A stretch of 64,000 bases of DNA from a virus (Duplodnaviria; Heunggongvirae; Uroviricota; Caudoviricetes), in the IMG/VR virus record IMGVR_UViG_3300003310_000099, positions 266,295 through 330,294 of that record. One strand, 5' to 3'. Under the pieces are notes generated by a model. It did no database searches. It was not told the origin of the DNA and saw only the letters and a program-made list of their open reading frames with translations. Within the stretch, counting starts at the first letter, position 1. Each line of letters begins with the position of its first letter. The translations under genes were made by a program, and so were the position numbers. Below, in pieces: positions 4,501 to 54,970 of this stretch.

Positions 4501-4877
4501 TCTGGATTCTGACCAAGCAGACCGTATTGTTGAGCAGTTGGACTATCGCTATTCTCATGTAGAGATTGACTTGCTGTTGGATTAGCTTAGCTGTACCGAG
4601 TAAGCCATGAATTGGACAAAAGAACTACCTACTGATGCAGGCTGGTACTGGAACCGCAAGAACAAGTACAAGAAGGAAAACATCTACTACGTCTGGATTT
4701 CTCTTGAAGAATCCTTGTTTAAGGACGTAAACGTATTACACTGTCGTCGTTCTGGTGAGTCACTTTTTGACAAAGAGCGTGTAGAATCTATCGGTGGCGA
4801 GTGGTACGGTCCAATCAAGGCACCCGAATAGCTTAGCTGTACCGAGTCAACTGTTCCTTTCAACAATCGGGGGTCAA

Positions 4878-5969
4878 ATGAAAACTCGCAGCAAGACGGT
4901 TGAATTGGTTAAGGAAGGTCATTTCGACAAAACTACGTTGAGTGGGCAGCTAGAGCGGATCATCAAAAAGGGCATTAGTCCCACGTTGCATAAGCAAGGG
5001 TGGACGTTCGTTCCGCCTGAGTTTATTGACAACATGAATATGACTATTGCCAAGATTCGTCTTTTGAAGAAGATGAAGCGTGAGCGTGAAGGCTCTGATG
5101 AAGTCTTTGCGCGTCAATCCGAAGAAGTTTTGCAGCGAATGGCAGTATTCTGTCGTGAATCCAACTGGTCCTTTAAGGACGCAGCAATTGAGAATAAGGT
5201 TTGTCCGAAACAGAATTTTGATTTCCCAATGCCCGAAGAAATCAAGCCTTATTTCGGGCACATTTATGATCGTGATGCGCATATTCGCCTGATTTATAGC
5301 TCTTTGAAGGCTGCTCAGGCGAGCGTGTTTGAACAACGCAATCATTGCCTCTTGTGGGGCAAGCCTGGATGTGGTAAAACCGAAACTGTTTTGAGTTTCG
5401 AGAAGATGGTAGGTGCCCAAAATGTAATCAAATTGGACGCTACTTCCACTACCAAGGCAGGTGCAGAGAATCTATTGCTGGAGTTGGACGTAGTACCGCC
5501 AATTCTTCTGATTGAAGAGTTGGAGAAGTGCAACCCATTGAATTTGCCGTGGTTGCTGGGCATCCTAGACCAACGTGGCGAGATTATTAAGACTAATGCA
5601 CGCATCGGCAGTCAGCGGAAGTCTGCTAAGTGTCTTTGCATTGCAACGGTTAATAATCTCCATGAATTGACGAATATGATGAGCGGTGCCTTGGCGTCCC
5701 GTTTCCAACATAAGATTTATTTTCCACGTCCCAATCGGGCGATTTTGGAAAAGATTCTTTTGCGGGAAATTGTCAAGGTGAAGGGCAATGAAGCGTGGAT
5801 CAAGCCGATTCTGGATTATGTTCTGGAAATCGAAAAGGTGAATGATCCACGTCGGGCTATCTCTTTGCTGGATGGCCGCGAGAAGTGGCTGACGAACGAG
5901 TACAAGGACGATTTGATGGCGGTGCGTGAAGCAATGCACACTGACAATGTAGAGTTGCCAGATAACTAA
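4878..5969 (+). CDS. AAA+ ATPase
   Basis: Walker A GKPGCGKT, Walker B LLIEE, sensor ATVN, arginine finger ALASRF; start reassigned to ATG 4878 after GGGGG. Confidence 0.85.
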   Translation: MKTRSKTVELVKEGHFDKTTLSGQLERIIKKGISPTLHKQGWTFVPPEFIDNMNMTIAKIRLLKKMKREREGSDEVFARQSEEVLQRMAVFCRESNWSFKDAAIENKVCPKQNFDFPMPEEIKPYFGHIYDRDAHIRLIYSSLKAAQASVFEQRNHCLLWGKPGCGKTETVLSFEKMVGAQNVIKLDATSTTKAGAENLLLELDVVPPILLIEELEKCNPLNLPWLLGILDQRGEIIKTNARIGSQRKSAKCLCIATVNNLHELTNMMSGALASRFQHKIYFPRPNRAILEKILLREIVKVKGNEAWIKPILDYVLEIEKVNDPRRAISLLDGREKWLTNEYKDDLMAVREAMHTDNVELPDN

Positions 5970-5980
5970 GGAGAAAATTT

Positions 5981-6424
5981 ATGTTGGATTTCAAGGGTTT
6001 GAACAAGGCACAGGTGTTAGCGGCTCTTTACAATGCTTCCCGTCCTTTGGGTATGGGTTTTATGCACTATAACCCTACCCCGATGACCGAAGAGGAAGCT
6101 CAAAAGGAATTAGAACGCACCACCTATTTTGATTATCTTAATGGGCGTGTGATGAAGCTGAATTTGGGCAAGGATCAGGTTGACCCTTGGCTGTATGACC
6201 GTGACAATGGGGAAGGGGCTGCTCAGCGTGCCATTGATGCTGCCGCAGCAGGCAATAAGGCTGCAATCATGGCCGCACATGTGCAAGGGGTCAAGGAAGC
6301 TGCTGGCGCTGCATTAGACTCGATGAATACTCCAATGAGTATCGAGGGGCATGTTATTAACATGACCCTGAATGACGTAAAGGATGAACTTGGTCCCAAG
6401 GTGGCTAAGGCTTTGGAGAATTAA
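5981..6424 (+). CDS. Hypothetical phage protein
   Basis: 147-aa ORF with AAGGAG RBS. Confidence 0.75.
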   Translation: MLDFKGLNKAQVLAALYNASRPLGMGFMHYNPTPMTEEEAQKELERTTYFDYLNGRVMKLNLGKDQVDPWLYDRDNGEGAAQRAIDAAAAGNKAAIMAAHVQGVKEAAGAALDSMNTPMSIEGHVINMTLNDVKDELGPKVAKALEN

Positions 6425-6431
6425 AGGAAAT

Positions 6432-6600
6432 AAGCGAAGCCAACATACCGAGACGCGATGGCTAAGCGTGTAGGTCGTTGGTAGCGGGATTCATGCGTAG
6501 GACATAACCTGTTGGCCTTGCATGAGTATAGACAATTGCTTCAATCCGAAACTGTCAACAGAGACTTCGGAGAACAAGAAGCTACCGCTGATAAACGCTT
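6432..6600 (+). ncRNA. Candidate structured non-coding RNA
   Basis: ORF-free gap with nested complementary pairs AAGCG/CGCTT, GGTAGC/GCTACC, TTCATGC/GCATGAG, TCCGAA/TTCGGA. Confidence 0.4.
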
Positions 6601-8483
6601 CTTCTTTACCTTAGCTGTACCAAGTCAAACATGAACAACCTCATCAGCGTTGAAGACATTAAGAAAATCTTAGTAGACAATTATGTTGTCTATGTTAAGT
6701 ATGTTCGCATTGGTGAAACCTATCGGTTCGCCCTTGATGCTGATTGGTTTACTCCAAAACATTCTCAGATGGTCAAGGCTGGTGAGACTGCCAAAAGTGC
6801 AGGTGGTTTCAAACTTTATCGTGATCGGCTTGAATGGGAAGTAACCTATTCACAAACTCTACATCTTGGCACTGCACCAGATGACGAAAAAAATCTGTGT
6901 GAACTATTCTACAATTAAGGAATCAAATGCTGCACGAATCTAAAGAGATTACGCGGGATGAAGCACGATATTTGCTTTTAACTCACCTTGCCAGTCTGGT
7001 GGATTATTGGGAGAATGAGAGTCGTGCAACCGAGTCCAAGAAGAAGTTGGAAGGCTTGCTTTTTAGCGTTTTGTCAGCTTTAGATGGTTGCTCTTGTGGT
7101 CTGCCAGGTTTCATGCTGATTCCGAGTCTGCACGAAAGCGATAAGGAATACGCAATTGAAAACCATTATGATTACTACCCGCATTTGGATAAGCTGCCAG
7201 AGGGCACTTATGACATTGGCGGTAGTCTTCACGAACAAATTCATAAATATCTGGACGGCTCGGTTGAGCGACCCAAGAATCTCCGCACGTTCAACGAGTA
7301 TGTAAACTACTGTCCCGTCCAACTAAGAGAGATGTGGTGGGATACCTTAGCTGTACCAAGTGGTGAAACTGACCAACAAACCCAGGAGAACTAAAATGAA
7401 GGAAATGGCTGGTTGTCTGACGGTAATTTTTGGTATGATCGGTGCAGTGATCGTTCTGGCAGTCCTTATGGCTCTGCCAACGATGTGGTTGTGGAACGCC
7501 ATCGTTCCCGATATCACCAAGAATGCCGTCACGGAATTGACCTTTTTGCAGGCTCTTGGTCTGAACTTCCTCTGTGGAATTCTGTTCAAGAGCAGCGGTG
7601 TCAGTGCCTCCAAGAGCGAGTAAACATGGACACCCCTGAATTCCTTAAAGTATTATTCAAAATATACTGCGAGGAATGCAAACAAAACCATGAACGGTAT
7701 GAATTTTGCGAGTGTCATGCTTGTATTATGAAGCATGGCACTCGTATTTCTACCTATCCACCACTTTACAAATGCGATAAATGTGGTAAAATGAATTGGT
7801 GGGAACCAAATGAAAATGAATGAAATCATCGAAGATTATATCAAGGGCATAGAGAATGTCCGTCGTCAAGCGGGTTATAATGCCGCAATTTGCGAAGAAG
7901 ATACCATGTATGGCGGTCAAACCCTTGATGAAGAAATCAAATTAGCAAAGGAAAGGCTTGAACGTGCAAAAGCTGACCTACAAGTGGAGCAAAAGGGAGA
8001 ATGATTTCATTATCAATTTCCCCCGTAAATGCGATGGTCATTTAGTTCATAGTTTCTTTGCTGGACATATCAATGGCAAAGAATTTATGGAAGAATTAGA
8101 GAAGCGTGGCTATGACCTCAAAACCCTCAAATTTGAAGTGAAGGAAAAGGAACCATGCAAGGATACTTAGGCGAAACCGAACTCAAGTCCACAGATGGCA
8201 CCCCATACCAAGGCTTTGGGCCTACCGAATGGGCAATGAAGTACATTGAATTCTATGGACAGATTGACGGTGGGCACCATAAGCAATGGGTTTTAGATCA
8301 AGTCGCTCGTATCCTCAAAGGTACTCCAGTTGAATTGTCCTTGGCTAAGTGGGACAACGGACAACAAGAATACCGTTTCAATACTGGTGAACCTTCAAAA
8401 GAGTACCTGAGTTGGGTTGAGGAAATGCGTTGTCCTGACGAAGACGGCAATGCCGAATATGAGTATGATGAGGGCTGCGCACC

Positions 8484-9209
8484 TTGAAGCTTTATATCTC
8501 TGCCCCATTTGGTAATTATTATAGCCACCCTGACGCTATCAGTGTATTAGGAACATATACACATGAACACAGGGCTGGTTTCATTAAGAAATGGTGGCGA
8601 GTATTAAAGACCCTTCGCCCCTATCCTGGTGGCTGGATCAATAAACTAGGATTACCCAATCCTGGTATTCATGCTGCACCTAAACCGACTGAAAATACTG
8701 TAATCAGTCTGCACGCTTTTGATAAGGATGAGTGGTTTAGGGTACAGTATATTGCTTATCAATATCTTGGTTGGCGCGAGGTAGAATTAAATCTATCTTG
8801 TCCTAATGTTGCAGCATCAACTATAGATGAAGCTGTTTACGCTGCACGGTCGGCCATTCTGTTTGGAATGGATGTAACCGCTAAGTTAGGTCCAGTTAAG
8901 CCAATGCAGTTTGTAAGACCTTTATCTGAGGCTGGTGTCACTAAATTTCATTTATGCAACACGATTCCAACGCCTAATGGTGGGATTAGTGGTGCAGGAT
9001 TAAAGCCATTTAGTCTGTGGGCTGTAGAAGAAGTTCGCAAGTATTATCCTTGGGCACATATTATCGGCGGTGGTGGCATCAATAATGAGCAAGACGTTAA
9101 AGATTACATTAACGCTGGGGCTAATGATGTTGCAATCGCTGGCGCACTATTGAATCCATTTACAGCAAGAAAAAAGATTGCTAATCTGGTGGAGTGTCTA
9201 AAACCTTAG
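8484..9209 (+). CDS. pyrD: Dihydroorotate dehydrogenase-like FMN TIM-barrel protein (compact)
   Basis: Motifs INKLGLPNPG, ELNLSCPN, CNTI, GGISG, IIGGGGI, AGA. Confidence 0.75.
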   Translation: MKLYISAPFGNYYSHPDAISVLGTYTHEHRAGFIKKWWRVLKTLRPYPGGWINKLGLPNPGIHAAPKPTENTVISLHAFDKDEWFRVQYIAYQYLGWREVELNLSCPNVAASTIDEAVYAARSAILFGMDVTAKLGPVKPMQFVRPLSEAGVTKFHLCNTIPTPNGGISGAGLKPFSLWAVEEVRKYYPWAHIIGGGGINNEQDVKDYINAGANDVAIAGALLNPFTARKKIANLVECLKP

Positions 9210-9225
9210 CTGTACCGATGAAGTT

Positions 9226-9897
9226 ATGTTCAACCGAGCTAAGCGACTTCTGAACCTGAAAGATTATGCGAATCATATCTCACCCATTGATTGTGGTGAG
9301 ATTAACTTGCAGCCGCCATACGTTAGGCAGTATGTTCTGCGGATGATGGTTCGAGGGCTGTATGGTTCCCAGATTGTTCTCCCTGATTCGCTACTCTGGT
9401 TGAAGGATACGATTGAGTATTGCGACGGTATTCAGAAGAAGCATGGCATCCATCATCAATTCATTTACATTACAGTCCGTCATGGGCTTGTAACCAGTAC
9501 GAATGATGATACTTGGCATGTCGATGGTTTCTCAATGCGATACGAACATCTGCCAGAACAAAACTACATTTATTCCAATGTATCTGGCACTGAGATTCTA
9601 AGGCAAGGATTCGATATCCCTGATGACTTTGATCCTGAAAAGCATCATATTCATCAGTATTTTCAAGACCATGCGAAGGGCGAATCATACGCTCTGCCTG
9701 TCAATAGGCTGTTCGTAATTGATCCTTATATCGTCCATCGTAGGCCAAATGTCAGTGGCCAAAGAACTTTTGTAAGGATTTCCTTCGTCCCAATCGAAAT
9801 TGAGGACGATACTTGTGAAAAGAATCCCTTAATGCCTTCACGAACCTATAACCGTGAAGACGTTAGAAAAACTCTGCGGAGGTACGGATATGACTAA
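9226..9897 (+). CDS. Possible 2OG-Fe(II) dioxygenase-fold protein
   Basis: WHVDG, distal H and R-T-F-V-R pattern; leaderless ATG 21 nt after motif 9205. Confidence 0.45.
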   Translation: MFNRAKRLLNLKDYANHISPIDCGEINLQPPYVRQYVLRMMVRGLYGSQIVLPDSLLWLKDTIEYCDGIQKKHGIHHQFIYITVRHGLVTSTNDDTWHVDGFSMRYEHLPEQNYIYSNVSGTEILRQGFDIPDDFDPEKHHIHQYFQDHAKGESYALPVNRLFVIDPYIVHRRPNVSGQRTFVRISFVPIEIEDDTCEKNPLMPSRTYNREDVRKTLRRYGYD

Positions 9898-10747
9898 GAT
9901 GCAAATTAAGCAGGCCAAAGCACTTGCGGCTCAGATTGAGAGGAAAAAGGAAGAAATCGCAAAGAATCGTGATGAATTGCGCAACATGCTTGCAGACCTT
10001 GAAGAACTTATTTGTAGTCTCGATAGCGGTATTGAAGAAATTGAAAATGGCTTGTCTTGTCTTGAAAATGGCTTGGATCATATTAGCGGGCTGCTCTAAT
10101 GAAGATTAGAAAGAGCTTCCTCAAGGAAGTAGAGCGGTTTGATAGCTGCAATAGGAATCCTAGCAGTCCGCAACGCACCGAATTAGGTATAGAACAGTTT
10201 TATGAGTGGGAATCTCATGGTAAGATGCCAGAGAAGCCCGACCCATATTTTACCCATTTACTTGATGGCAAAGCATGGTGGGAATGGACTCTTAATGAAA
10301 TTGCCAAAACCTATTTGACTGAGAATTGGTTTGGCTGGTATCAATATGCCAAAGATTTCATTGATGACCCCAAAGGCTTTCACCAGTTGAGACAAAGAAC
10401 GTATCAAGAACCAATCGACCCCGTTGACTTCATTTTGAAGATTGACAAGGATTTAACTTTAGAAGAGAAAAGGTACTACTGGCAAGGAATTCCCACCTTG
10501 CTCAAAACATTATGAAAAAATCAAAGAAAATGTATTGGATGGCATTTATTGCTGGTTTAGCCAATCTACCATTTGTATTTATGACAAGTCCAGAGAATCT
10601 TAGGAATCTCTGGTTTACTGTTCCAATGGTTGTCATGCTGTTCACTATGTTTGGTTTGGCTGTCCATGCGATGCGGCTTGAGGGCGAAGGCCGATAGCTT
10701 AGCTGTACCGAGTGGTTTGTAACCAACAACCCAAACGGAGAACAAAT

Positions 10748-11314
10748 ATGAGCCGTGAAATTAGCAATTCCGATGACGTGATTGATAGCCGCGACGTAAT
10801 TGCCCGTATTGAGGAACTTGAGAGCGATTTTGAATCCGCTCATGATTCCGATGTACTTTCACGCATCGAAGCTCTTGAGGAAGAACTCAAGACAGCACAT
10901 GAAATGGAACTCGAAGATGCTAAGGGTGTCGAGGGCATCTTTGTTGAACCTGATTTCGACAAGTGGCTTGAAAGCAACGATGATCCCAACGCGATTGAAT
11001 TGACTGAACTCAAGGCAGTTGCTGATTTCGACACTTGGCTTGAACAGAATGAGGATGATGACGCACAGGAGTTGAAGGCTCTGCGTGCCTTGGCAGATGA
11101 AGCGGAAGGCTATGCAGACGATTGGAAGCATGGTGCGACCCTCATTCGGGAGACTTATTTCGAGGAATACTGTGAGGATTACATTAGCGACATTGGCGAT
11201 TTGCCCAAGGAAATTCCTAATTATATCGTGATTGATTGGGCAGCGACTGCTAGTAATCTCCGTGTGGATTACTCCGAAGTTGATTACGATGGTGTGTCCT
11301 ATTTGGTGAGGTAA
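10748..11314 (+). CDS. Highly acidic ArdA-like antirestriction or DNA-mimic candidate
   Basis: Very D/E-rich; C-terminal EIPNYIVIDWAATASNL resembles the ArdA C-terminal YID.E...RDL region. Confidence 0.5.
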   Translation: MSREISNSDDVIDSRDVIARIEELESDFESAHDSDVLSRIEALEEELKTAHEMELEDAKGVEGIFVEPDFDKWLESNDDPNAIELTELKAVADFDTWLEQNEDDDAQELKALRALADEAEGYADDWKHGATLIRETYFEEYCEDYISDIGDLPKEIPNYIVIDWAATASNLRVDYSEVDYDGVSYLVR

Positions 11315-13266
11315 AATGAATACTTCTGCAAGCAAAACGAGTGTAATGCCATCTTATCACTATAAGAAAGCAGTGAAGGAAGTGAAGGCTATCCCCGACT
11401 GCAAAAAGACTTATAGTTCAGGTGGCTATTCAACTTACGAAACTCCATTGTTCTATATTCGTATTCTGGACAATGAGGAAAACGTACAGATTCAGTTGGC
11501 TGAACGTGAAACCTTCGACCGTTGGGCGAATTCAGTCAATTTTGCTGTTGAACGTAGCAAGACGCCAAAGTGTTATTACCCATTGGTTCTGCCCCAATAC
11601 CTTTGGGCAATCAAGGTGTTAAAGTCCAAACTGTTTAATTTCAACAGTTATATCGGGGCAATTGAATTGCCTTGGTTTGAGACGAAGAGGAACCGATGAA
11701 ACTTGGTGAAATGTTAAGTGATATGGTGCGTTATGGGGATATTGAGGAAGCCCCTTGGCCCGAAGAGTGGCTTAAAGAAGTAAATTGGCAGACAATTTAC
11801 AAGGAAGACCCCGAACTCTATTATAGACTCAGCATTGCCGCATCCATCCTTAAATTGATGAATAAATCAGAAGGTGGAAGCTGGTCAATACACGATGATA
11901 TTGTTCGACCATTCCTAAATCAAGAGGTGAATAATGGTTAAGTGGACACTTAAAGATACGATTGAATGCTACAAGCAAGGCTGGGCACCGTTCAATACGG
12001 ATTACGGCACTACTGAAATCATGGCCCTTGATGACCCTTATGGAGTAGCAAGCGACTTTGGATTTGAATTCAAAGGAACTTACTTCAAGGGAAAGAACCG
12101 AGACAGCAATGCCCTTCGCTCTGTAAAGCGCAAAGCTGCGAAGGGCAATGACCTATGCAAACGGGCGTTGCAGCTTTGTAAAAAGAATCAATTTGTAGGT
12201 GATTTGCTTCCTTTCATGGACTAGGAGCTATTATGTACGCTTTTGAACGAACCGTACTGCCCAAGGACAAGCTCGAAGGTATTACCAAATATGAAAATTC
12301 ATTTGGTAAAGATTGGGTAGAACGGTCTGTGCGGTGGACAAAGGCAGATGCCTACATTAAGGCTAACTTCGTCCGTATTGATAACGAGTCAAGCAGTAGG
12401 AGTTGTGGACGTTGTTGCGAAGAAGGCAAGATTGTTTATCGTCGCATTGATATGCAACCTATTACACAAGATGACCTATTCGCTTTTGCTCATTATGAAC
12501 TTGGCCAGGTGAATAAGATTCATGGCAAGCCAGGTGATTTGAAGGTGATGCAGGAATGGCTCTGCGACTCAGGAGATTAAATGTATAAAGCTACAGGCCA
12601 CATTGGTTACTTCTGGAAGGGTCCAGACGTAGACCTTGGAACTTATAAATGGTTTTTCTTTGCTTGGCTTAATGCTAAGATTTGGCTGCTCGATTGGCCG
12701 CATTCAACGGCAACTATTGTAAAGGTTTGAAAATGCAAATTACTCTAAAAATACCCGTCACTAACGATGAGATTAAGGAAGAAATTATGAATTTGCGGGA
12801 TGCTATTGCTCTCCGTAATTCCGAAATTCAACTATTACGGGACGCTATTGCTCATTATCAGAAGCAATGCAAGCATCCTGGTCAGAAAACTGGTTATAAT
12901 GAACGAGACGGCAATTGGGCTACCCCTTGTCCAATCTGTGGAGACTCACGATAAGGAGTAATAATGAGCAAGTTTATGGGCGAGAAGTTTATGGCAATGA
13001 TCCGTGATTTTAAGAACGTATCAGTCTCTGAAACTCCAGGTTTCCGCACTATGAAGGCATTTTATGCCAAATTACTGAAAGTTGGATTCTCTGAGGTCGA
13101 GGCTATCAACGTAGTTTGCAACACGGAAATTGACGTAAATCAATACTTCGCTGACAATTACCTTGAAGAAACGACCGATATTTTCGCTGACTTGGCATTA
13201 AAGATCAGGAAGGAATGCAACAAAGTGAGTCCGCTGTTGTTCTCAAAGTATATTGAGTGCAATAAG

Positions 13267-13482
13267 CTAACCATTAAGTTTACGACTTAGCCATTCGACA
13301 AATGAAAAAGATTCAGCTGTAGCTCCAGCGAGGGCGTCTTTATAACATTGCTTGCACATACCATGTGTAACTGGACGCTTATCGTTGGGGTCGGGGATGT
13401 AGCGGTTGCCAGCAGTTCCATCAGGCTTGATAAGTCTTTGCGGGTTACACCAAGCACAAACTCTTATTAAATCTTTTTCCAT
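13267..13482 (-). CDS. Small zinc-binding protein (CxxC...THGMCxxC)
   Basis: CAWC and HGMCKQC motifs; ATAAATA-CACCT-ATG upstream on the minus strand. Confidence 0.65.
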   Translation of the reverse strand: MEKDLIRVCAWCNPQRLIKPDGTAGNRYIPDPNDKRPVTHGMCKQCYKDALAGATAESFSFVEWLSRKLNG

Positions 13483-13492
13483 AGGTGTATTT

Positions 13493-14335: not shown

Positions 14336-14346
14336 TATATAAATTC

Positions 14347-41080: not shown

Positions 41081-41116
41081 GCCAAACAGGGGGGAACAAA
41101 CTGTTCCCCCCTTGAG

Positions 41117-42758: not shown

Positions 42759-42792
42759 GCAAGAGGGGAAAGTAAACCCTCTTGCTTTTTTT
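42759..42792 (+). terminator. Intrinsic terminator
   Basis: GCAAGAGGG/CCCTCTTGC stem followed by T7. Confidence 0.8.
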
Positions 42793-44982: not shown

Positions 44983-45637
44983 GCCTATACCTTAGCTGTA
45001 CCAAGTCCATTGTAATCGCCCGCGTGTTGCTCCGAGCGAATCGGAGCCTATTTGGAGAATGGCCATGCGGTACGCTGATCGTTTTTGTCAGTACACGGAA
45101 TCGTTCGAGAACGGTCACGTCTACATTTTCACTGGTCCGTGTGTGGTCACGGGCAAGCCTGTTACGGTCAAAGTGCCCGCCGAGGGGCTGTTTGCCTATC
45201 GGTCTGGTGCCCACATTCAGGACGCCTTCCCCACCCTATCCTCTGATGACCGTGAATTCCTCATGAGTGGGATAAGCAAGGAAGCGTGGGATGAGACTTT
45301 CAGTGGGGAAGAGGAGTAATCCTTAGCTGTACCAAGTTCGTTAACTAAACTCTGGAGAACAGCTATGTCAGTGATCGAAAAGATTCAGGCTGATTTCGCG
45401 GCTGCGGGCTATCAGTGGCAGGAACACATCTACAACGATGGTTTGCCTGGATGTAGCATCATGTTCACCAAGGACAAGAATCCTCACTATTTCGCTGAAC
45501 ACCCATGCGGTGATTTTGGGTGGGGCCGCTTTGAACGCTGGTGGGCATGGGCACAGGCTCATGAATGGTTGCTGAAAAGGCAAGCAGCATAGCTTAGCTG
45601 TACCAAGTCTTTTGTAATCACCTTTACTGGAGCAATC

Positions 45638-46081
45638 ATGTATCAGCAGTATCCGAGGGACTTGGTTGTTAGCACGCCGTTGGGTTCGGTCAAGGTGGCT
45701 ATCACTGATGATAAGCACGCCTACGTTGAAAGCAATGACGTGCTTATCATCAGTGGCAAGCCGATTCGGGTTACGCTGCACATTTTCCTACGGGATGGGC
45801 AGTGGACCGACAAGAACGAGAACGGGCGCAGCACGATCTACGCCAAAAAGCCCGACGTGTGGACCAATGATGAGGCAACGCCACTCCAAAAGGAAAAGGC
45901 AATCAAGGCAGTGGTGCCGACTGTGGGCAACTTCATCAATGCCAATGCCCATTTGCTGAAACAGGCACAAGCGGCACACGTTGCTAACGCTGTGGAAACG
46001 CTGGAAGGCCGCATTGCCGACAAGCGTAAGGAAATCGAAGAAATGGAAAAGGAAATCGCTGACCTGAAGGCGACTCTGTAA
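45638..46081 (+). CDS. Hypothetical protein with C-terminal coiled coil
   Basis: Single-gene unit between motifs 45593 and 46085; GGAG RBS. Confidence 0.8.
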   Translation: MYQQYPRDLVVSTPLGSVKVAITDDKHAYVESNDVLIISGKPIRVTLHIFLRDGQWTDKNENGRSTIYAKKPDVWTNDEATPLQKEKAIKAVVPTVGNFINANAHLLKQAQAAHVANAVETLEGRIADKRKEIEEMEKEIADLKATL

Positions 46082-46688
46082 TAGCTTAGCTGTACTGAGT
46101 ACAGTGTAACCTTACTACGGAGAACGAAAATGCAGGTCATCGACACTCCCGAAGGAATTCGTGCCTATCGTCTGTTGGCTTTGCGGGCCGCTTTGGGACT
46201 GGAAGTCAAGGGGCTGAAAGGGCGAGTGAACGCCTACGCCACAATCAAAAAGGAATTCGGCCTCAAGGGAACCAAGGCAAAGGTCTATGCCTTGTATGAG
46301 GCCAAGTTGCAGGAAATGGGGATTCTTAGCTGAGCGGAGGGCAGAAATCCTCCCAAGACGGGGAACCATAGGGTAAGAGCGGTGCTGGCTTAGGCCAAGA
46401 ACCTCTATGGTTCCCCGTAATTAGCTTAGCTGTACCAAGTAAAGCATAACCCTGGAGAAACCATGTTGGAAAGCTGGATTCTGGCTCGTTACGATCTGAA
46501 TTACGAGATTGCTGTTGATGAGGGTCATCAGGAAGAGGCAAGCCGCATTGCTTGGGAGTGGACTGAGAAAGAGTACACTCGGATGTTTCATCGGGTCAAG
46601 GGCCAGAAACAGGCGCAGCAGCAGGAAGAAATCGCCCTCCGCGATTAGCTTAGCTGTACCAAGTTCATTGTAACCTACCTTTTGGAGA

Positions 46689-47003
46689 ATGGTCATGGAT
46701 ACGCTGGAACTTGCTTCGGCCCCCGTTGGTGAAGAGTGCGCTCAACTCGGTAGTCCCGACTATTACGAGCGGGCAAAGAAGGAATGCAACGCTTTCATTG
46801 GCCAACTTCGCCGTAAGTTCGGCAAAGAGCCAGTCGGCGCAAGGCTTTACGTCAAGGCCAACGCACATGACTTCGGGAGCTATTACGAAGTGGCGTGCAA
46901 ATTTGACGGAAGCAATCAAGAGGCAATCGAGTACGCTTTCGATCTTGAGGCCAATCTGCCCGAAAATTGGGACAAACAGGCCAAGAGCGAACTTGGGTTG
47001 TAG
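46689..47003 (+). CDS. Hypothetical phage protein
   Basis: Single-gene unit with GGAG RBS. Confidence 0.75.
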   Translation: MVMDTLELASAPVGEECAQLGSPDYYERAKKECNAFIGQLRRKFGKEPVGARLYVKANAHDFGSYYEVACKFDGSNQEAIEYAFDLEANLPENWDKQAKSELGL

Positions 47004-47600
47004 GGTTCAGGGTTCGCCCACCCTGCTTAACCTTAGCTGTACTGAGTTGGTTAAATCCCAAGGCTCGGAGTGTCTGGCGATGATTAACACGGCGGAAGAA
47101 ATGATTCGGGTAGTTCTCGATGAAATCGGCCTTCAAAGCAGCTTAGCTGAGATTCGGAACCGAGTGGTCCAATCTCTGAACGAAATTAGAAAGAAATCGG
47201 CAACGGAAAGGATATTGCGTGAAATGGCTAAAGTTTGGGAGAGTTTTGCAAGAGGAGAACAGACATATGAGGCATGTCTGAAAAAAATCGAGCTATGGGC
47301 TGCGTTTATTTGGCAGGCCAATGACGACTCTGGGTATCTGTATGAGGGTTGCACATTAAACCCCGACCACATTTGGCATGAGTGGTGTGCCTGGATTTAT
47401 GTCGCAAATCCAGAAGGGTATAGTGTTGGTTATCCGAGTCTGGCATATTGTTGCCAGATCAGGAAGAAGGTGCAGAGGGAACGTGGCGAGGAATACGACT
47501 GCCGTACCTATGAAGGTCAACCCGACCGCAATATGATTCTGGTCTGACCAACAGGGTTCGCCCACCCTGCTTTACAAACCTTAGCTGTACCGAGTACATC

Positions 47601-48695
47601 ATGAACACTCAAGAATATCTGCGTAACGGCAAGACGTTGGAAGACTTGACCTCTGAGTTTCACATCAACGTCACGAAGCACGATACGTTGCCGTTGGTCA
47701 TCCTGAACTACGATCAGATTGAGTCGCCTAAGACTCATCCGATTGTGCGGGAATGCCGTGGTTTGGTTCTCAACTCTGAGGACTATTCGCTGGTGGCGCG
47801 GGCTTTCGGACGGTTTTTCAATTGGGGTGAAGTGGCGGATGAGATGCCGTTGTTCGATTGGGATTCGTGCGTAGCTCACGAAAAGGTTGACGGTTCGCTG
47901 GTTCTCATCTACTACTTCGATGGACGTTGGCACGCGAATACGCGAGGCTCGTTCGCTGGTTGGCCGCTGTTCAACGATGAATATGTGGCGAAGTATTACG
48001 GTTTGCCGACGACGTTCAAGTGGTCCGATGGTTTCCTCAAGGCTTTAGGTGTCAATTCCCTTGAAGAGTTGAACCTTGACAAGTCGTTGACGTATGTATG
48101 CGAGTTTTGTTCGCTCTGGAACAAGGTAGTTCGGACGTACAATGAACCGTGTATGTATATGTTGACGCGGTTTGCGGGCATGGAGGAAATCGGGCCGACG
48201 TATCATCCGAACTTCAAGACGCTGGGGGCTTATCCGTTGAAGTCTGTACAGGATGTGCAGTCGTTTGTGATGGATCATCCCGAAGCGACTTTCGAGGGTG
48301 TAGTCGTCAAGGATGATGCGCACCGACGTTGGAAGTTGAAGAATCCGCGATACGTTGCGTTGCACCACATGAAGGGGAACGGTACGGAAATCTTCAAGCC
48401 TAAGAACTTGATGCCGTACATCCTCAAGAATGAGGGCGACGAATTGCTGACGTACTTCCCCGAAGTCAAGGATGTGTTTGCGGAGTACAAGGGCAAGGTT
48501 GACGATGCCTACAACGTCCTAGAAACGCTCTGGAAGGCGAATAAGGATATTCCCGTCCAAAAGGATTTTGCGTTGTCTATCGTGGGCAAGACGCCGTTTA
48601 CTTCAGTTCTGTTCAATCTCCGCAAGCAAGGGGGAACGTTGCGGGATGAATGGATGAAGCACGGGGATGGCATTCTGAAAGTGTTGTTCAAGTAG
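47601..48695 (+). CDS. RNA ligase, T4 Rnl1-like
   Basis: RECRGLVL, RFFNWGE, motif I EKVDGS, FEGVVV, RWKLK; leaderless ATG 21 nt after motif 47580. Confidence 0.88.
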   Translation: MNTQEYLRNGKTLEDLTSEFHINVTKHDTLPLVILNYDQIESPKTHPIVRECRGLVLNSEDYSLVARAFGRFFNWGEVADEMPLFDWDSCVAHEKVDGSLVLIYYFDGRWHANTRGSFAGWPLFNDEYVAKYYGLPTTFKWSDGFLKALGVNSLEELNLDKSLTYVCEFCSLWNKVVRTYNEPCMYMLTRFAGMEEIGPTYHPNFKTLGAYPLKSVQDVQSFVMDHPEATFEGVVVKDDAHRRWKLKNPRYVALHHMKGNGTEIFKPKNLMPYILKNEGDELLTYFPEVKDVFAEYKGKVDDAYNVLETLWKANKDIPVQKDFALSIVGKTPFTSVLFNLRKQGGTLRDEWMKHGDGILKVLFK

Positions 48696-51600
48696 TATCG
48701 AGGGCAGGGGAAAGCCAACCCTGCCCATTACCTTAGCTGTACCAAGGTGAATATGAAAACCAAAACAGTTTACGTCTGCGTCAAAGTCAAGGTGGAAATA
48801 CCCGACGTGCTTCCCGAAGACGTGGAGGATGCAGTCAACCTTGTAGTCAATGAACTTGACTACACCATGTCTTACGATCAGGATGGCATCAAGATCGTGG
48901 GCACGGAAATCATGGGCACGGTTGAGGCGGATTCAATTATCTAAGTCAGGGTATCGCCCACCCTGCTTAACCTTAGCTGTACCAAGTCCAATGCAACCAA
49001 ACTCATTGGAGTCAAGTATGTTTAACTTGATCGCAATCGCTGCCAGGTCACTTGGCCACCCGACCACTGGTGACTTCGCTTTCGCTCTATGGGAAATGTG
49101 CAGCGGCAACCGCCTGGACGTTCGGGACGCCAAGGCGTTGTATGAGGCGTGCGGTTATCTTCCTTTCAACGGGTATCCACTAACAAGGGCAACAAATGGG
49201 TTGGCAACGGAAACAGAACGACAAGCGTAAGCTGAACGGGCAAAAGGATTGGACGCGAGAACAAAAGGAACAGGTCAAGCGGTTTCTCAAACAGTATCCG
49301 CAAGGAGCGCAAGATGAACGACAGCAACGAAAAGCTGGATGATCTTTGGATTGACATTGGCGGCGAAGGCTAAATCTTAGCTGTACCAAGTAGAATGTAA
49401 CTCAAGTGAACCTTAATGAAAGGAAGCTATATTGCGTATAGTTTAGCCCAGAAGTAGCTCATTAGTTGGAAGTGGGACTAATGAGTGTGGGGCCTTACCA
49501 CTACTAGCTTTCTCTTACCTGGAGCAACCATGTTGAAGATTTACACTCAGGACCACGGTTACAGTGGCATGATTGTTGCAGTCGCCAAGAATGAGGCGGA
49601 TGCAAGGAAGATCATGAAAGCTGCCGCCAACTACTATGAACATACGCCAGTTGAGGAACATGAAATCAAGGAAGGTTTCATGGAATACAATATGGGTGAC
49701 GGCTAAACCTTAGCTGTACCTAGTTAATTGTAACCTAACTGGAGCCAACACATGGCGAAGCTGACGAATGCGGAACGGGAACAGTGGATCAACAACGATG
49801 AGGGTCTGTATGACTGGAAACGGTCGTCAAGGCTCTCAATGCGGGAGTTCATCAAGCAGAACAAGGAAGAGATTGACCAGTGCATCAACAACGTGCTGGG
49901 CAACAAACAGCCTGCCCATTACCTCAAGTATGGGCGCTACCCTACATGGCGGTAGCATCAATCCCAACGCTTGGAGTTCATCCCGTGGAAAACGAATTCG
50001 ATCTTTACATCATCATGGCACACGCTGAACATTTGCGGCGTCAGTTGCTGAACAACGAAAAGCCCGATGCGTGGCGTATCAAGCGGCTGAGTGAATTGGC
50101 TCAAAACATCGAACGCGAGTACGATGAGCAATACCAAAAGTGGTGCGATGAGCAAGAGCTTAGCTGTACCGAGTGAGTTGTGATAACTCAAGCGGAGAGT
50201 ACCATGAAGCTGGACCCGACTGGTTGCATCGACACGAACAACGGCAAGGGTTACTTTCAGGTCCGCGACAATTGGGAAGGCAACGGCTATCGCCTCTACT
50301 TCGGGGGCGATAGGTATGTCTCTCAGGTGGACGGTGAAATCAATGGCAAGGTTTACCGTACCATTAAGGCGGCAAAAGCTGATTGCTTCCGTCGCTTCAA
50401 GCTAGAAGCGAAGCGTGTCTATGACTGATGCCTTCAAGTCTATAGATAAACTCTGTAGACTTTATGGCACTAACTTCTACATTCAAGTTTCCGAGTGTTC
50501 CATTGGCATCTACAACGTGCCAGATGATGACTTCCATATCTTCACTTGGAGCGAAAATCGCTATGTTCTGACCAACATACAAGACTATATCCCCAATTGG
50601 CTATCCAACAAAGTGGGGATATAGCCTAGCTGTACCAAGTCCATTGTAATTCAAATCACTTTGGAGAATGGTCATGACTGACAGCGTTGCCAAGATTGCC
50701 CGTGTCAACCCGACCTTGGCCAACAAGATCAACGCACAATTCACCTTCCTCACCAATGAGGACATTGCCGAAGTCGAGAAAATCGACCGCATGATGATGG
50801 TGCTGGTGCGTTGCGGCAATGGCCGATTCGTCTGCCCCGTTCAGAACGCACTACACTTCTGCAACATCATCGACAAGGAAGGCACCGACTACGTTCGGGA
50901 TATGAGCTTCCCAAGTAATGGGTAGAACAGGGTTCGCCCACCCTGCTTAAACCTTAGCTGTACTGAGTGTAATGTAACTCATTCAGGAGGACTTCAATGG
51001 CTCAGTGCTGCGGCGAAGAAATGTACAAGGACTGCAACGGCCAACCGCGTTGTGAACAGTGCCAACCGCCGTGTCCGTGTTGCTATGATGGCGGCATGGA
51101 TGACCAAGAGGAAGAAGAAGAATTTTGGCTGACGTGTCTGGATGAGATGGATGCACGATACCGTAAAGGAACGAAAAATGGAAACTCCGCTCCAGAAGCT
51201 GCCATTCGATGAAGCCCTGTACCAGACATTCAATTTCGTTAGCAAAATGTCTGAGTCAATGGATGCTACGTTTACTGATGATGAACGGGCAGCTGTCAAG
51301 ATCACTTCACGCATACTCGCCCAAATGGTTGTGGAAATGCACGACGATACCTTAGCTGTACCTAGTAAGTTGTAACCCAACCCCAAACGGAGAGTGCCAT
51401 GTACGAAGTCATCCACAAGGGTCGCAGCTTGTTCCGCAACGTCAGCATCGAGCGTTGCCGTCAGTTCATCGCACGGCACAATCTCAGTGGGGCTATCATT
51501 CAGCCCCTCAGTCAAATGTTGGCTGCTTAACTCCAGGGTTCGCCCCCCCTGCGCCACATCTATTAAGGAGCCAAACATGTATGAGGGTGAAGCCGATTAC

Positions 51601-52260
51601 GTTCCCTACTTCTGGGAACGCAAGACACCAGTGCAGACCGTTGGCAAGGTGCGTATCTACCTTGTCCAAGACGAAGCTGCACAATTCGATGATCTGATGG
51701 GACGAAGCCAACTCAACTTGGCCGAATGTTCCAACGGCAAGGTCATGGAAATAGCTTAGCTGTACCTAGTTAATTGTAACCTTACTCTGGAGCAAACACA
51801 TGCAGGTACATCTTTACGGCAAGCCTCTGGTTGAGGGGAAGACTGTGACGCTGGACCATACGGTTCAGAAGTTCGAGATTCTGATTCGCTCCATGAGTGG
51901 GGTTCATGCACAACGCTTGAAAGACCTCATTCAGAAGCAGTTTGAGGTCGTCAAGATCAAGGAAGTGGACAGCATTTCTTACGTCATCTAAGGGGCAGGG
52001 TCGCCCACCCTGCTTAAACCTTACGGAGTCCTACCATGAAGATCATTGCTGCCTACAACAAGTACACCAAGGAAGCCTTGACCAACGAACAGCGGGAAGC
52101 TGACATGGAGGCACTACTTGAGGCACATGAAGAAGAAGTGAAAACCAACCCCACATGGAAGTATTTCGGGGGGCATCATCGAGCTAGGCGACCACGAATA
52201 CCAAGTGTGCTAAACCTTAGCTGTACTGAGTACAGTGTAACCCCAACACTTGGAGCAAAC

Positions 52261-52626
52261 ATGGACAAGCATTTGCAAGAGCGTATCGACCGTTTCGTGC
52301 AGGCCGCTGATCGGTGCGTGGAAACCTACTGGACGAACAGTGGCTACACCCACATGTCACCGCCCAAACATCGCGCCAACGAGATTAGCGACAAATGGGT
52401 GCGAGTTGTGACGGTCGAAGAACGCAATGGCGTTTGGCAGGATTCGAGCGTCTACGCCTTCATCTGCCTCAAGGACTATTCGACCAAGGCTTTAGGTCAA
52501 CTCAAGAAGGGCGACATTCACAAACCAGCGACCTACAAGGCCGCTGCGAAGCACGCAAGGGGCAACGTGTTCGACAACGATTTTGAGAAGTGCCTGACGC
52601 CGTGGGGTATCGTCTACTTGAAGTAA
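52261..52626 (+). CDS. Hypothetical phage protein
   Basis: KGDIHKPATYKAAAKHARGNVF; GGAG RBS after motif 52216. Confidence 0.75.
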   Translation: MDKHLQERIDRFVQAADRCVETYWTNSGYTHMSPPKHRANEISDKWVRVVTVEERNGVWQDSSVYAFICLKDYSTKALGQLKKGDIHKPATYKAAAKHARGNVFDNDFEKCLTPWGIVYLK

Positions 52627-53960
52627 GGGGCAGGGTCGCCCACCCTGCTTAAACCTTAGCTGTACCGAGTAGAGTATGAACAAACAAGAATACGCTGAGT
52701 ATGAGGCACGGGTAGCCGAGTTCTTCAGCCACGGTTTGGCTAACTTGTCAACCAAGTCGGATTGCCATGAACCGTTCTTTTCGTGGCGTCCGTGTCAGTG
52801 CTGCGGGACACACTTAGGCGGCAATCGCTATGAGTGTGACGGGTACAATGAGAAGACAAAGGAAGTCGAAGAGTACGACAACATTTGCGAAGACTGCGTA
52901 TATTACGCAGAATACGGGCAGCTTGACGATACCACTATGGCCAATCTGGAGTAACCATGAAACTCAGCGAAGCTATCCACAAGCTGCAATATACGCTCAA
53001 TCTCCACGGCGATAAGGAAATGAAACAGTGGAAGTATAGCGACGGCAAGGTACAGTCTGTGCCCGTCAAGCTGGAAGTAGCCGAAAACCCCGAAGATGAT
53101 ACCATCGGCGTCATCCTCAGTGCCGAATAACCTTAGCTGTACCGAGTAAAGCATGAACACATCACTTGAAAAGAAGATCAATCATAAGCGGCGTTTGCGT
53201 GTGCTGCGTGAGAGACTTCGCAAGCTGCTGCTCCAATACTACGTTCATTCGGACGCGGGCAAGCTGGAGAAGCATGTTCGTGTGATGAACAAGCTCCGCA
53301 AGGCAATCAGAAAGCTTAGCTGTACCAAGTAGGTTGTAATCACCCTTACTGGAGTCAGCCATGCAAGACCACGTTCTCGACAACTGCCTCATTCATCAGA
53401 AAGATGCCATTATCGACCTCATCGACAGTGGCAAGCACGATGAGGCGATAACGCTGCTCAAGTTCGTCAAGGAACTGTGGGAAGCCGCGAGCTACGACTA
53501 CAAGTACAGAGAACTCAAGGAGCGCGGCGTCAGAGCGGCGGATAACCGAGAGAACTGCCGCCACTGGAAGCACGTCCAGTCACTCACGGCCATTCAGAAC
53601 AAGTATCGTTCACTGTAAGGGGTGGATAGGGGAGAAAGCCAATCCCCTTATCCTGCTGATACCTTAGCTGTACCTAGTGCAGTATAACCCTTACTGGAGA
53701 AGACACATGAAGGTTTGCCAGAAGTGCGGGGATGAGATTGGCACCAAGGACGGGGACAACTATTGTGGCAAGTGCCACAAGAAGAAGGATGCGGCCAAGA
53801 GACGGAAGGAACGGGAAGACGTGTTGCGTAGTTGTGGGTTGGTGAAGGTGCGTGGGGCAATGGGTGGAACCTATTGGGAATAACCCAATAGGTCGCCCAA
53901 CCCAGCATAGCTTAGCTGTACCAAGTGCATTGTGACAGTCAAACCCCTGGAGTCAGTGCA

Positions 53961-54317
53961 ATGCGGTATTTCATCAAGTTGGCCAAGAAGAACGACCGTG
54001 GCGAACCCGTCAACACGGGTTGGTATGAAGAGGTGGATGAGTACACGTTCAAGAACGCCAAGTATGCGCTCAACGATTGCGGCGATGGTCCGCGTTACAC
54101 GAACGACGCTGTGATGGTGGACGGCGATGAGGTCACTGCACGGTTGGTCGCAGCCCCAATACGGGACTTGGCCATTCTGACGCGATACTTTCAGGCGTCG
54201 GAACCGAACAAGGTGGAAGGCGGTTTCGTCCGCGAGCAACCGAGTATCAAGTTCAACATTCGCGGCAAGATCAAGCTGCGTGAGAAGGACGGTAGCATCT
54301 GGAGCAAAGCAGCGTAA
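53961..54317 (+). CDS. Hypothetical protein
   Basis: Single-gene unit with GGAG RBS, followed by the TCGCCC hairpin. Confidence 0.7.
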   Translation: MRYFIKLAKKNDRGEPVNTGWYEEVDEYTFKNAKYALNDCGDGPRYTNDAVMVDGDEVTARLVAAPIRDLAILTRYFQASEPNKVEGGFVREQPSIKFNIRGKIKLREKDGSIWSKAA

Positions 54318-54970
54318 ACCAACAGGGTCGCCCACCCTGCTTTACCTTAGCTGTACGGAGTGGAGTATGAGCTACCTTCGTCACATGCGGACTACTGCTG
54401 AATGCCGCGCTGAAAGCGGGGCCGAAGAACAAGGCGTCAAGGTGCGTGCGAAGCGTAATCGCCGCAATATCCCCAACGCTTGGGACGACGTGCCTCATGC
54501 CCGTCGCCACAAGTGCGACCGCCACAAGGATCATCGTCGCTAACGGGCGGGTGTACGGTCTGGCGGCGGGGGCCGTCAGCGTAAGGTAGGCAAACCTACA
54601 CCGTACACCTGCCCAAAAGTACAAAGCTTAGCTGTACCTAGTATAGTGTAATCACCCTTACTGGAGACAGCCATGCACGCTACCACCGAACGCAAGAAGT
54701 CCAACAAGAACGATTTCACCGTCACCACGACGGTCAAGGATCGCGCCATTCACATCCAGACCATCATTATGATGGCAGCAAGGTCCAACCGCGAACCCGA
54801 TAAGCGCCGCAAGCTGCGGGAACGCGACGACCGCCGCATGAGGGACTGATGAGCGAACAAGAAATTGCCGACTGGCTCGCAGAACTACGCGAGTCAGTCG
54901 GCACCAGACCCCAAGGATAGCTTAGCTGTACCAAGTAGGTTGTAACCAACACCCTTACTGGAGAGTACAC

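Follow-up and report, generated by a model that had tools for sequence, protein, structure and literature searches.

A repeated promoter-like motif with a fixed start offset and predicted leaderless genes in an uncultivated huge phage

What does a sequence do that stands, nearly unchanged and on one strand, in front of dozens of small phage genes, and why does an ATG so often begin at one fixed distance behind it? The question is raised by a 64,000-nucleotide (nt) stretch of DNA, the window (G000:C1:266295-330294), of the 373,404-bp IMG/VR virus record IMGVR_UViG_3300003310_000099 of an uncultivated huge phage (G000), in which the motif CTTAGCTGTACCNAGT recurs. The genome has about 57 tRNA genes, an rIIA homologue, tail and baseplate genes, and open reading frames (ORFs) that are mostly unannotated; rIIA and a gp5-like OB domain are among its T4-type genes. 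An initial annotation had placed the motif at -21 to -6 of a promoter, with transcription starting 21 nt past its first C and about a quarter of the units giving leaderless transcripts, and all sequence-level tests that were run agree with this start and this proportion. We consider it likely that the motif is a phage promoter with its start at motif+21, that about a quarter of its copies yield leaderless mRNAs, and that it is read by the host polymerase with a phage sigma factor. In what follows, the base at offset 21 from the first C of the motif is numbered +1.

Motif geometry and the genes that begin at +1

Counted at no more than one mismatch in the 11-mer core, the motif has 84 forward and 2 reverse copies in the window; the whole of G000 has 111 forward and 3 reverse copies, one of the latter degenerate. 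Most forward copies (95/111) fall within 244-325 kb of G000, and the median spacing is about 400 bp at 36-59 kb of the window and about 1-2 kb at 2-36 kb. A logo of all 111 forward copies, the check that had been called for at the outset, showed that positions -25 to -6 form one conserved block (W W A S C T T A G C T G T A C C N A G T), and that a pyrimidine at -1 and a purine at +1 come after it. The end of the motif at -6 is that first described, while its beginning lies 4 nt further upstream than was thought, with W W A S as the extension at -25..-22. The 5-nt spacer after the block, described earlier as variable, is indeed weakly conserved and purine/A-rich.

The start context is Y-1 in 101/111 copies (never G), R+1 in 105/111 and T+2 in 78/111, then R+3 and A+4. 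In the window Y-1 is found in 78/84 (binomial P 7e-20), R+1 in 80/84 (P 3e-17) and both in 76/84; the early observation that C or T precedes +1 extends to the genome. Copies lacking an ATG at +1, of which there are 84 genome-wide, obey the rule equally well (Y-1 in 74/84, R+1 in 78/84), and the rule is therefore not a by-product of start codons. The motif and this geometry can be read directly from the DNA, and from them we infer that RNA synthesis begins at +1.

At offset 21, ATG is found in 27/111 copies of the genome against 2.6 expected (P 4.8e-20), and at any other offset from 11 to 35 in no more than 5. Among the 84 window copies, offset 21 holds ATG in 24, GTAA in 24 and GT in 40, and the start contexts are paired, C|A with ATG and T|G with the GTAA/GTGA/GTTC class. 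All 23 ATGs first listed lie where they were reported, each behind CTTAGCTGTAC(C/G/T)(G/A)A(G/T)(T/G) and five variable bases, as do the T|GTAA leader examples at 10719, 26487 and 54942; a 24th ATG was found at 41479.

Most of these ATGs behave as gene starts. Of the 27, 25 open at least 51 codons, compared with 26% of random ATGs; the exceptions, 32117 (21 codons) and 41479 (15 codons), probably do not begin genes, so that the original list loses 32117 and is supported in its other members. This leaves 22 credible leaderless genes in the window and 25 in the genome. Their 25 proteins have no detectable similarity to one another and thus count as independent cases. All 25 ORFs score as coding in frame (mean 0.19, against 0.03 for antisense ORFs), and none (0/25) has an in-frame alternative start behind GGAG, GAGG or AGGA in its first 40 codons. 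In 19 of the genes an in-frame stop at -6..-4 makes an upstream start impossible. For the SprT-like protein that begins at 24168, the Pfam alignment runs from residue 19 at profile position 18, which brings the start to about the first residue. Only ATG serves as a start codon at +1, since GTG at that position always has an ATG downstream that is led by a Shine-Dalgarno sequence (SD). According to Brock et al. 2008, as cited in PMC5312081 (reference 27), leaderless mRNAs need a 5'-terminal AUG; the ATG-only rule fits this requirement and, by analogy, the predicted 5' end.

Assigning each copy its downstream gene gave leader lengths of 0 nt (n=25), 3-5 nt (n=8) and, for the remainder, mostly 11-47 nt with GGAG 5-9 nt before the ATG; few leaders are longer, and among the assigned copies there are none of 6-10 nt. 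Such bimodality is expected if +1 is the 5' end of the RNA, which then either lacks a leader or has one long enough for an SD.

Some individual copies have unusual settings. Both reverse copies in the window (55639 and 57968) break the Y/R rule, run into TTGGAATAAAAAAAGGGGGCC-type hairpins and form divergent pairs with forward copies around non-coding stretches. Three forward copies lie within 340 bp (36270, 36453 and 36590), the last two in tandem before a DUF932 gene (ATG at about 36644). The forward copy at 43753 is the only one inside a long open frame (window 43175-44200, 341 aa); an in-frame ATG at its offset 22 would give a 141-aa P-loop kinase (AAA_33), and the G001 orthologue of the frame spans residues 172-341 only, so that the frame could hold an internal promoter or two fused genes. 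At 52002-52045 (+) a conserved hairpin is followed by CTTAAACCTTACGGAGT, which resembles a motif copy without GCTGTAC and looks like a decayed promoter before an ATG that has no SD.

Motif versions in related phages

Relatives were reached from the RNA-ligase gene of the window. They comprise a 390-kb genome (G001) and 60 loci (L-numbered) from a metagenome scan with the ligase alignment; searches with the 275-aa sigma factor of G000 or with a Ro/TROVE-like protein returned no relatives beyond G001. Among GenBank phages, 20 kb of the window had no megablast match, and a search of IMG/VR for the exact motif returned 34 contigs with single chance matches only; one of these, a 355-kb contig (G002), was considered as a relative and rejected as unrelated. 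A literature search on the motif strings and on leaderless transcription in jumbo phages found no description of the element in the papers that could be searched.

G001 is syntenic with G000 and has its own version, W-T-A-S-CTTAGTTGTACCAA.., in 101 forward and 6 reverse copies with the same clustering. Y-1 is found in 83 copies and R+1 in 91, and ATG stands at offset 21 in 25, compared with at most 6 at any other offset. In most of the G001 ATG copies the 3' half consists of A, T and C only (CCAAAAttccc, CTAAAAaccat, CCAATTcaatc), with the consequence that an SD is not required for the arrangement. Orthologues in G001 were found for 8 of the 25 leaderless genes; six of the eight start at +21 and one has no motif.

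This low retention despite synteny is what would be expected if the repeat were a recombination or cassette-shuffling site, integron- or PeSL-like, with no part in RNA 5' ends, and shuffling of this kind is known for the PeSL elements of T4-type phages (PMC2839356). A shuffling site would not impose Y-1R+1T+2, a fixed ATG offset, a single strand or a position before tRNAs, and PeSL shuffling is itself a by-product of repeated promoters, hence an added consequence and not an alternative. We regard shuffling as the sole role of the repeat as highly improbable.

Closer versions of the motif recur among the L-numbered loci. L084 has the same motif as G000 (33 copies, 4 with ATG at +1), L086 has TCCAGCTGTACTAAG (20 copies, 2 with ATG at +1) and L088 has TGNGGTTGTACTAATT (43 copies, 3 with ATG at +1), and in these three Y-1 and R+1 each reach at least 90%; L085 and L089 have further versions. 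Across the related versions the offset to Y|R is identical and GYTGTACY at -17..-10 is invariant, while the upstream half is lineage-specific. The RNA-ligase orthologues of G001, L084, L085, L087, L088 and L089 each start at +21 of their own motif version.

More distant lineages have unrelated private blocks, namely TAAYCGGACACCGGGAAG in L094, TAACACCCACAAG in L103, (G/T)ACACCYGCTTG in L122/L095/L148 and GTTAA-N12-GACGAGTTAAAT in L121. The blocks of L094, L103 and L122/L095 each end at about -7 with Y|R six nt later, and L094 has Y-1 in 18/18 copies, R+1 in 16/18, GTAAC leaders, and ATG at +1 in 4/18. The corresponding region of L113, L114, L115, L118 and L123 has about one perfect TTGACA-N16/17-TATAAT promoter per gene, and there the RNA-ligase orthologue lies behind TTGACA-N17-TACAAT-N6-ATG, the canonical leaderless arrangement of a sigma-70 promoter. 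As judged from these sequences, bona fide bacterial promoters hold the role of the motif in the L113-type relatives.

The conservation of the motif geometry across lineages is a direct observation. A broader reading, which we put forward tentatively and hold to be possible, is that a wide clade of large and huge T4-related phages may share a common layout, in which every small gene has its own promoter, the block stops at -7, transcription begins at Y|R, the leader is of the GTAAC type or is replaced by ATG at +1, and a tRNA occasionally stands at +1. The recognition block would have been rewritten in each lineage, with canonical TTGACA/TATAAT at one end of the series, GYTGTACY versions in the middle and unrelated blocks, for instance CGGACACCGGGAAG, at the other end. 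If true, phage sigmas, or a polymerase that has escaped recognition, would have co-evolved repeatedly with the more than 100 promoters of each genome, and leaderless translation would be in routine use on a large scale.

Transcription signals and the polymerase that reads the motif

The 5' end of a tRNA-Met gene coincides exactly with +1 of the copy at G000:124467, a tRNA-Val begins at +3 and a tRNA-Pro at +6 of their copies, and in G001 a tRNA-Glu begins at +3. These positions indicate that the signal is not translational. In Nanoarchaeum equitans, leaderless tRNA genes have a promoter at a fixed distance and are transcribed from tRNA position +1. The tRNA-Met matches this arrangement, with tRNA-Val and tRNA-Pro 2 and 5 nt later, whereas G000 has this single exact case and most of its tRNAs sit in arrays without a motif of their own.

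Hairpin and T-run terminators lie immediately upstream of some copies, among them those at window 37689, 57391 and 58592, the one at G000:42466 that leads a tRNA array and the one at G000:151816 that precedes a leaderless 134-codon ORF. A conserved hairpin, CAGGG(T)TCGCCCACCCTG, stands 6-12 nt upstream of about 13 copies, and the 45-nt stretches before the copies form more stable folds than controls from the region (Mann-Whitney P 4e-5). Promoters of the sigma-70 type are not enriched in the densest part of the array (40-59.5 kb), where 10 occur compared with 16.3 in shuffles. Over the whole genome they occupy 0-200 kb and are under-represented at 280-373 kb, and the 25 near-consensus TTGACA-N16/17-TATAnT promoters with at least 11/12 matches are almost all in 0-270 kb. 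The motif is thus the sole candidate promoter for about 50 consecutive gene cassettes, and G000 is partitioned between two predicted promoter classes, the sigma-70 type and the motif.

The motif might instead be an RNA-processing site, at which a sequence-specific endoribonuclease would cut polycistronic RNA 5 nt past the block, generate the 5' ends, AUG-terminal ones included, and free tRNAs. Upstream ORFs often end within the motif (TAG of CTTAG at positions 3-5, TAA/TGA at -6..-4, the TAA at positions 16-18) or no more than 5 nt before it, so the motif is also transcribed in read-through RNA; copies are found 4-5 nt past tmRNA and tRNA 3' ends; and U at +2 is reminiscent of a preference of RNase E. 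Against cleavage, several copies come directly after strong intrinsic terminators, the 20-kb dense region has no promoter of another type from which the precursor could be made, orthologous positions in relatives are bona fide sigma-70 consensus promoters, and two copies face the opposite way with no gene transcript there. A folded-RNA function of the motif was rejected as well, as it forms no stable hairpin, shows no structure conserved at the RNA level and differs between lineages without compensating changes. We therefore judge processing to be improbable, and favour initiation at +1.

Small RNA-like genes also border the motif. A short tmRNA gene is found at window 38788-38927 (+) (Rfam RF00023, 49.8 bits, E 1.4e-17), with a motif copy 5 nt past its 3' end. 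Two tRNA-like elements at 39566-39659 (+) and 38953-39116 (+) have T-arm-like GGTTCGATTCC or odd anticodon loops, one being labelled 'tRNA-???' by ARAGORN; both have motif copies on their borders, and an RNA initiated by the copy at 38932 would begin at 38953.

To account for the reader of the motif, the proteins of G000 were examined for polymerases and sigma factors. Three sigma-70-family ORFs are present (Sigma70_r2; two also r4). The 159-aa and 275-aa sigmas have G001 orthologues with 82% and 57% identity, and the gene of the 159-aa sigma sits behind a near-consensus TTGACA-N17-TATTAT (G000:16731-16765). No candidate T7-like polymerase (PF00940) was found in 373 kb, in a search run without a positive control and hence of unverified sensitivity; the beta/beta' domains of multisubunit polymerases (PF00623, PF00562) and sigma-54 (PF04552) had no match in G000. 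The PHROGs, Pfam and PDB searches revealed no polymerase among roughly 35 of the largest ORFs, no PHROG polymerase match among ORFs of at least 400 aa, and no polymerase signal in the largest unannotated proteins (1583, 1070 and 1052 aa). A sigma-54 promoter, considered for the -25..-10 span, was rejected on the basis of W/A at -25/-24 and A-C at -12/-11, where GG at -24 and GC at -12 would be expected, and of the missing PF04552.

The geometry of the motif is that of a sigma-70-family promoter, with TG at -15/-14, a block end at -7/-6, a 5-6-nt discriminator and a purine start after a pyrimidine. It holds in at least 5 lineages, and the L088 block TGTACTAAT is close to the extended -10 consensus TGnTATAAT. 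With three sigmas present and no phage RNA polymerase found, we infer host polymerase with a phage sigma, and from sequence and analogy the most likely reader is the host core RNA polymerase with one of the candidate phage sigmas.

A promoter with the same +21 start might also be read by a divergent phage-encoded polymerase, single-subunit or virion-delivered. Its contiguous, near-invariant 20-bp block without a -35 element resembles T7-group promoters, as does the private specificity of each lineage, and the genome has large unannotated ORFs (1583, 1070, 713, 684, 576, 558, 495, 485, 443, 430 and 408 aa) that could encode one. The domain searches above gave no such signal, the start-site geometry (TG at -15/-14, block end at -7/-6, Y-1R+1T+2) and the hairpin/T-run terminators fit a bacterial enzyme, and relatives have perfect TTGACA/TATAAT in the same genomic role; the three sigma genes, two of them conserved in G001, point the same way. 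A phage polymerase is in our view unlikely, and the host core enzyme with a phage sigma is preferred.

Competing signals, known systems and other features

A number of observations weigh against a host-read promoter with leaderless genes. On the side of transcription, there is no -35-like block at the canonical distance (at most 0.11 bit at -40..-27), and factors of the sigma-70 family do not usually recognise a contiguous block of 20 bp. The promoters of phiEco32 gp36 have AATGTA centred at -11.5 (PMC12276001), so that by analogy the TGTA of gp36 lies 3 nt nearer the start and our +1 may be misplaced by a few nt; support for +1 as the predicted start comes from the Y/R/T signal and from the tRNA-Met case. 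On the side of translation, the eight copies with 3-5-nt leaders are all variants (T-6 changed to G) whose start codon falls at +4 to +6 and whose 3' half supplies a complete SD, AAGGAG or similar, at -9..-4. In these eight the SD lies upstream of the proposed +1, which implies translation from read-through RNA; they complicate the model without contradicting it. G at -9, within GAG at -9..-7, is found in 19/27 ATG copies compared with 33/84 others (P 0.007), and T at -9 in 0/27 compared with 22/84 (P 0.002), with a similar GAG trend at -9..-7 in G001. In 7/27 ATG copies the upstream ORF either reaches into the ATG or has its stop 3 nt ahead of it. Among the G001 orthologues, that of gene 53153 has its candidate ATG at -5. 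Translation from read-through RNA, by a weak SD or by termination-reinitiation, could contribute too.

Taken to its limit, this evidence would mean that the ATG genes are not leaderless at all, and that the 3' half of the motif (GAG/GGAG at -9..-7) is a ribosome-binding site or its built-in stop (T-6 A-5 A/G-4) couples translation to the upstream ORF. The GAG enrichment, the 4-nt SD cores (GGAG, AGGA or GGTG inside the motif or spacer of 5/27 ATG copies), the upstream stops at -6..-4 or overlaps with the ATG in the 7/27 copies above, and the eight copies that clearly use a promoter-embedded SD are on its side. They also qualify the early statement that the ATGs mostly lack an SD, which stands for 4-nt cores and fails for GAG. 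The upstream ORF, on the other hand, ends at least 16 nt away in 20/27 ATG copies, with terminators between in some; most G001 ATG copies have no SD; Y-1/R+1/T+2 is equally strong without ATG; and the empty 6-10-nt leader class is left unexplained. We consider it very improbable that a ribosome-binding site or coupling alone accounts for the ATG genes. Some of them probably use two routes, leaderless from their own promoter and weak-SD or coupled from read-through RNA.

The mechanism that we propose is as follows. A phage-specific promoter, W-W-A-S-CTTAGCTGTACC-N-A-G-T at -25 to -6, would be recognised by the host core polymerase with a phage sigma, and transcription would start, within the sequence Y(-1) R(+1) T(+2) R(+3) A(+4), at the purine 21 nt past the first C. 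Where this purine is the A of an ATG, the mRNA would be leaderless, with its translation beginning at the 5'-terminal AUG; at other copies the transcript would begin with GTAAC, GTGA or GTTC and have an 11-47-nt leader with GGAG, or enter a tRNA. Copies that abut a preceding stop codon or hairpin would form one-gene hairpin/promoter cassettes, and read-through transcripts would coexist, with a minority of copies carrying an SD in the promoter to serve them.

If confirmed, the motif would provide an annotation rule, in which motif+21 marks where transcripts begin and also settles 25 start codons for which gene callers relying on an SD would choose a wrong position, and a huge phage would rely on leaderless translation for about a quarter of one promoter class. 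The relatives would supply promoter specificities that have diverged from one another in nature, together with candidate sigmas, possibly of use as orthogonal expression parts, and the lineage series from sigma-70 to private motifs would be a tractable case of genome-wide rewriting of promoter specificity.

By analogy, the organisation of the motif cassettes is closest to the PeSL cassettes of T4-type RB49/phi1, and the proposed mechanism to phage-sigma systems such as phiEco32 gp36. PeSL cassettes likewise comprise about 100 near-identical promoter units, mostly one per gene and often with a GC-rich stem-loop terminator, in hyperplastic regions of small ORFans with fast gain and loss between relatives (PMC2839356; PMC4122927). 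Their promoters are strong sigma-70 consensus promoters (-35, -10, AT-rich upstream) with SD leaders, unlike the private 20-bp block of G000 without a -35, its hairpins at only about 13/84 window copies and its predicted quarter of leaderless units; the distant relatives of the L113-L123 type have the PeSL-like sigma-70 version. In phiEco32, a distant sigma-70-family factor of the phage redirects the host core to a private TGTA-containing element in the -10 region at middle and late promoters (gp36 with gp79, PMC12276001). Its early genes, including the sigma gene, are on host sigma-70 promoters, as the 159-aa sigma gene of G000 appears to be. The phiEco32 element is 6-9 bp, compared with 20 conserved bp and TGTA at -15..-12 in G000, where the sigma assignment is a prediction, and leaderless transcripts are not a reported feature of phiEco32.

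T7-group promoters resemble the motif in that the block is long, contiguous and near-invariant, the specificity differs between lineages, the start is a purine, and one strand carries dozens of copies. They run from -17 to +6 and include the start, whereas the G000 block spans -25 to -6 with the CA/TG start and spacing of a bacterial enzyme. Leaderless mRNAs are known from lambda cI transcribed from PRM, and are abundant in Actinobacteria and Deinococcus-Thermus. The G000 units have in common with them a start codon as the first predicted triplet, ATG only, and a -10-type element ending 6-7 nt before the A; they differ in scale, as a single phage would have more than 100 promoter units with about 25% of this kind, and in being tied to a private promoter. 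In two jumbo phages with mapped 5' ends, phiKZ has no leaderless transcript (PMC8244752) and AR9 has untranslated regions of 26-491 nt (PMC5312081), unlike our reading of G000. A phiKZ/AR9-type promoter would need phage beta/beta'-like subunits, of which none were found in G000. New here are the bimodal leaders, the units whose SD lies within the promoter, the series that relatives form from sigma-70 consensus promoters to private blocks, and the partition of the genome between promoter classes.

Table 1 Motif units of the window (coordinates in the window) and sigma-factor genes of G000
Feature	Coordinates	Strand	Details
Array of 84 co-oriented WWAS-CTTAGCTGTACCNAGT copies	1782..58909	+	first C from 1782 to 58888
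Predicted leaderless unit (type example)	4582..4831	+	block 4582-4601, spacer 4602-4606, ATG 4607, 74 codons; upstream stop 4583-4585
Predicted leaderless unit	6610..6918	+	ATG 6631, 95 codons
Predicted leaderless unit	9205..9897	+	ATG 9226, 223 codons
Predicted leaderless unit	15302..15523	+	ATG 15323, 66 codons
Predicted leaderless unit	17431..17844	+	ATG 17452, 130 codons; upstream ORF ends in overlapping ATGA
Predicted leaderless unit	19119..19409	+	ATG 19140, 89 codons
Predicted leaderless unit	19855..20541	+	ATG 19876, 221 codons; G001 orthologue also ATG +21
Predicted leaderless unit	23765..23965	+	ATG 23786, 59 codons; G001 orthologue also +21
Predicted leaderless unit	24147..24629	+	ATG 24168, 153-aa SprT-like protein; GGAG at -10..-7; G001 orthologue also +21
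Predicted leaderless unit	24691..24930	+	ATG 24712, 72 codons; strong hairpin immediately upstream
Predicted leaderless unit	26008..26262	+	ATG 26029, 77 codons
Predicted leaderless unit	28451..28627	+	ATG 28472, 51 codons
Predicted leaderless unit	29232..29477	+	ATG 29253, 74 codons
Predicted leaderless unit	31131..31313	+	ATG 31152, 53 codons
Doubtful case	32096..32182	+	ATG 32117, 21 codons only
Predicted leaderless unit	33200..33397	+	ATG 33221, 58 codons; variant with AAGG at -9..-6
Predicted leaderless unit	37944..38207	+	ATG 37965, 80 codons
Doubtful case	41458..41678	+	ATG 41479, 15 codons; likely gene start ATG 41484 behind AAGGAG in motif/spacer
Predicted leaderless unit	42404..42688	+	ATG 42425, 87 codons; AAGGTG variant
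Predicted leaderless unit	47580..48695	+	ATG 47601, 364-aa T4-type RNA ligase (full length); hairpin CAGGGTTCGCCCACCCTG 10 nt upstream
Predicted leaderless unit	48732..48944	+	ATG 48753, 63 codons; AAGGTG variant
Predicted leaderless unit	52655..52954	+	ATG 52676, 92 codons; hairpin 7 nt upstream
Predicted leaderless unit	53132..53332	+	ATG 53153, 59 codons; exception in G001 (see text)
Predicted leaderless unit	54346..54543	+	ATG 54367, 58 codons; GGAG at -10..-7; hairpin 6 nt upstream
Leadered unit (type example)	54921..55354	+	predicted +1 = G of T|GTAACC at 54942, GGAG, ATG 54971; 29-nt leader
SD-inside-promoter unit (example)	26466..26726	+	T-6 to G gives AAGGAG at -9..-4; ATG at +4
Further SD-inside-promoter units in the window	starts 37689, 39123, 41458, 41680	+	variant copies
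Composite hairpin-promoter unit (example)	47009..47047	+	CAGGGTTCGCCCACCCTG, 6 nt, motif; about 13 such units in 40171-57600
Reverse copy	55618..55639	-	-1/+1 = G/T; hairpin within 15 nt; no ORF behind
Second reverse copy	57947..57968	-	same layout as the reverse copy at 55618..55639
Sigma-70-family gene	G000:16864-17343		159 aa; regions 2 and 4; FliA/WhiG-like in PDB searches
Sigma-70-family gene	G000:157512-158339		275 aa; regions 2 and 4; closest to primary sigmas
Sigma-70-family gene	G000:96335-96667	-	110 aa; region 2 only

Several features outside the motif array were also recorded. Other abundant strand-specific k-mers of G000 were considered as promoters and rejected, as they are coding repeats within a single gene at G000:360853-366486 (L017:853-6486); this gene encodes a 1877-aa protein with many near-identical repeats (AGTTTTGCACCATTCCCAAG and GTGTTTCTGTGAACC units), which is probably a fibre. 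At G000:344114-347272 (L015:14114-17272), a 1052-aa protein is split by an intein with a LAGLIDADG endonuclease (PF03161, 3.9e-25; Intein_splicing), and its G001 orthologue gives a single-piece match to residues 1-492 only. A tRNA with anticodon CTA, of the amber suppressor type and labelled 'Pyl' by ARAGORN, lies at L009:7507-7581 (G000:167507-167581). Finally, positions 18200-18900 of L097 (= L145), a locus on the 458-kb huge-phage contig Ga0214923_10000003 / IMGVR_UViG_3300023179_000009, hold a CRISPR-like array of about ten 36-nt direct repeats (ATTGCAGTACTTAAAACAAAAGATGAGTATGTCAAG) with spacers of about 35 nt.

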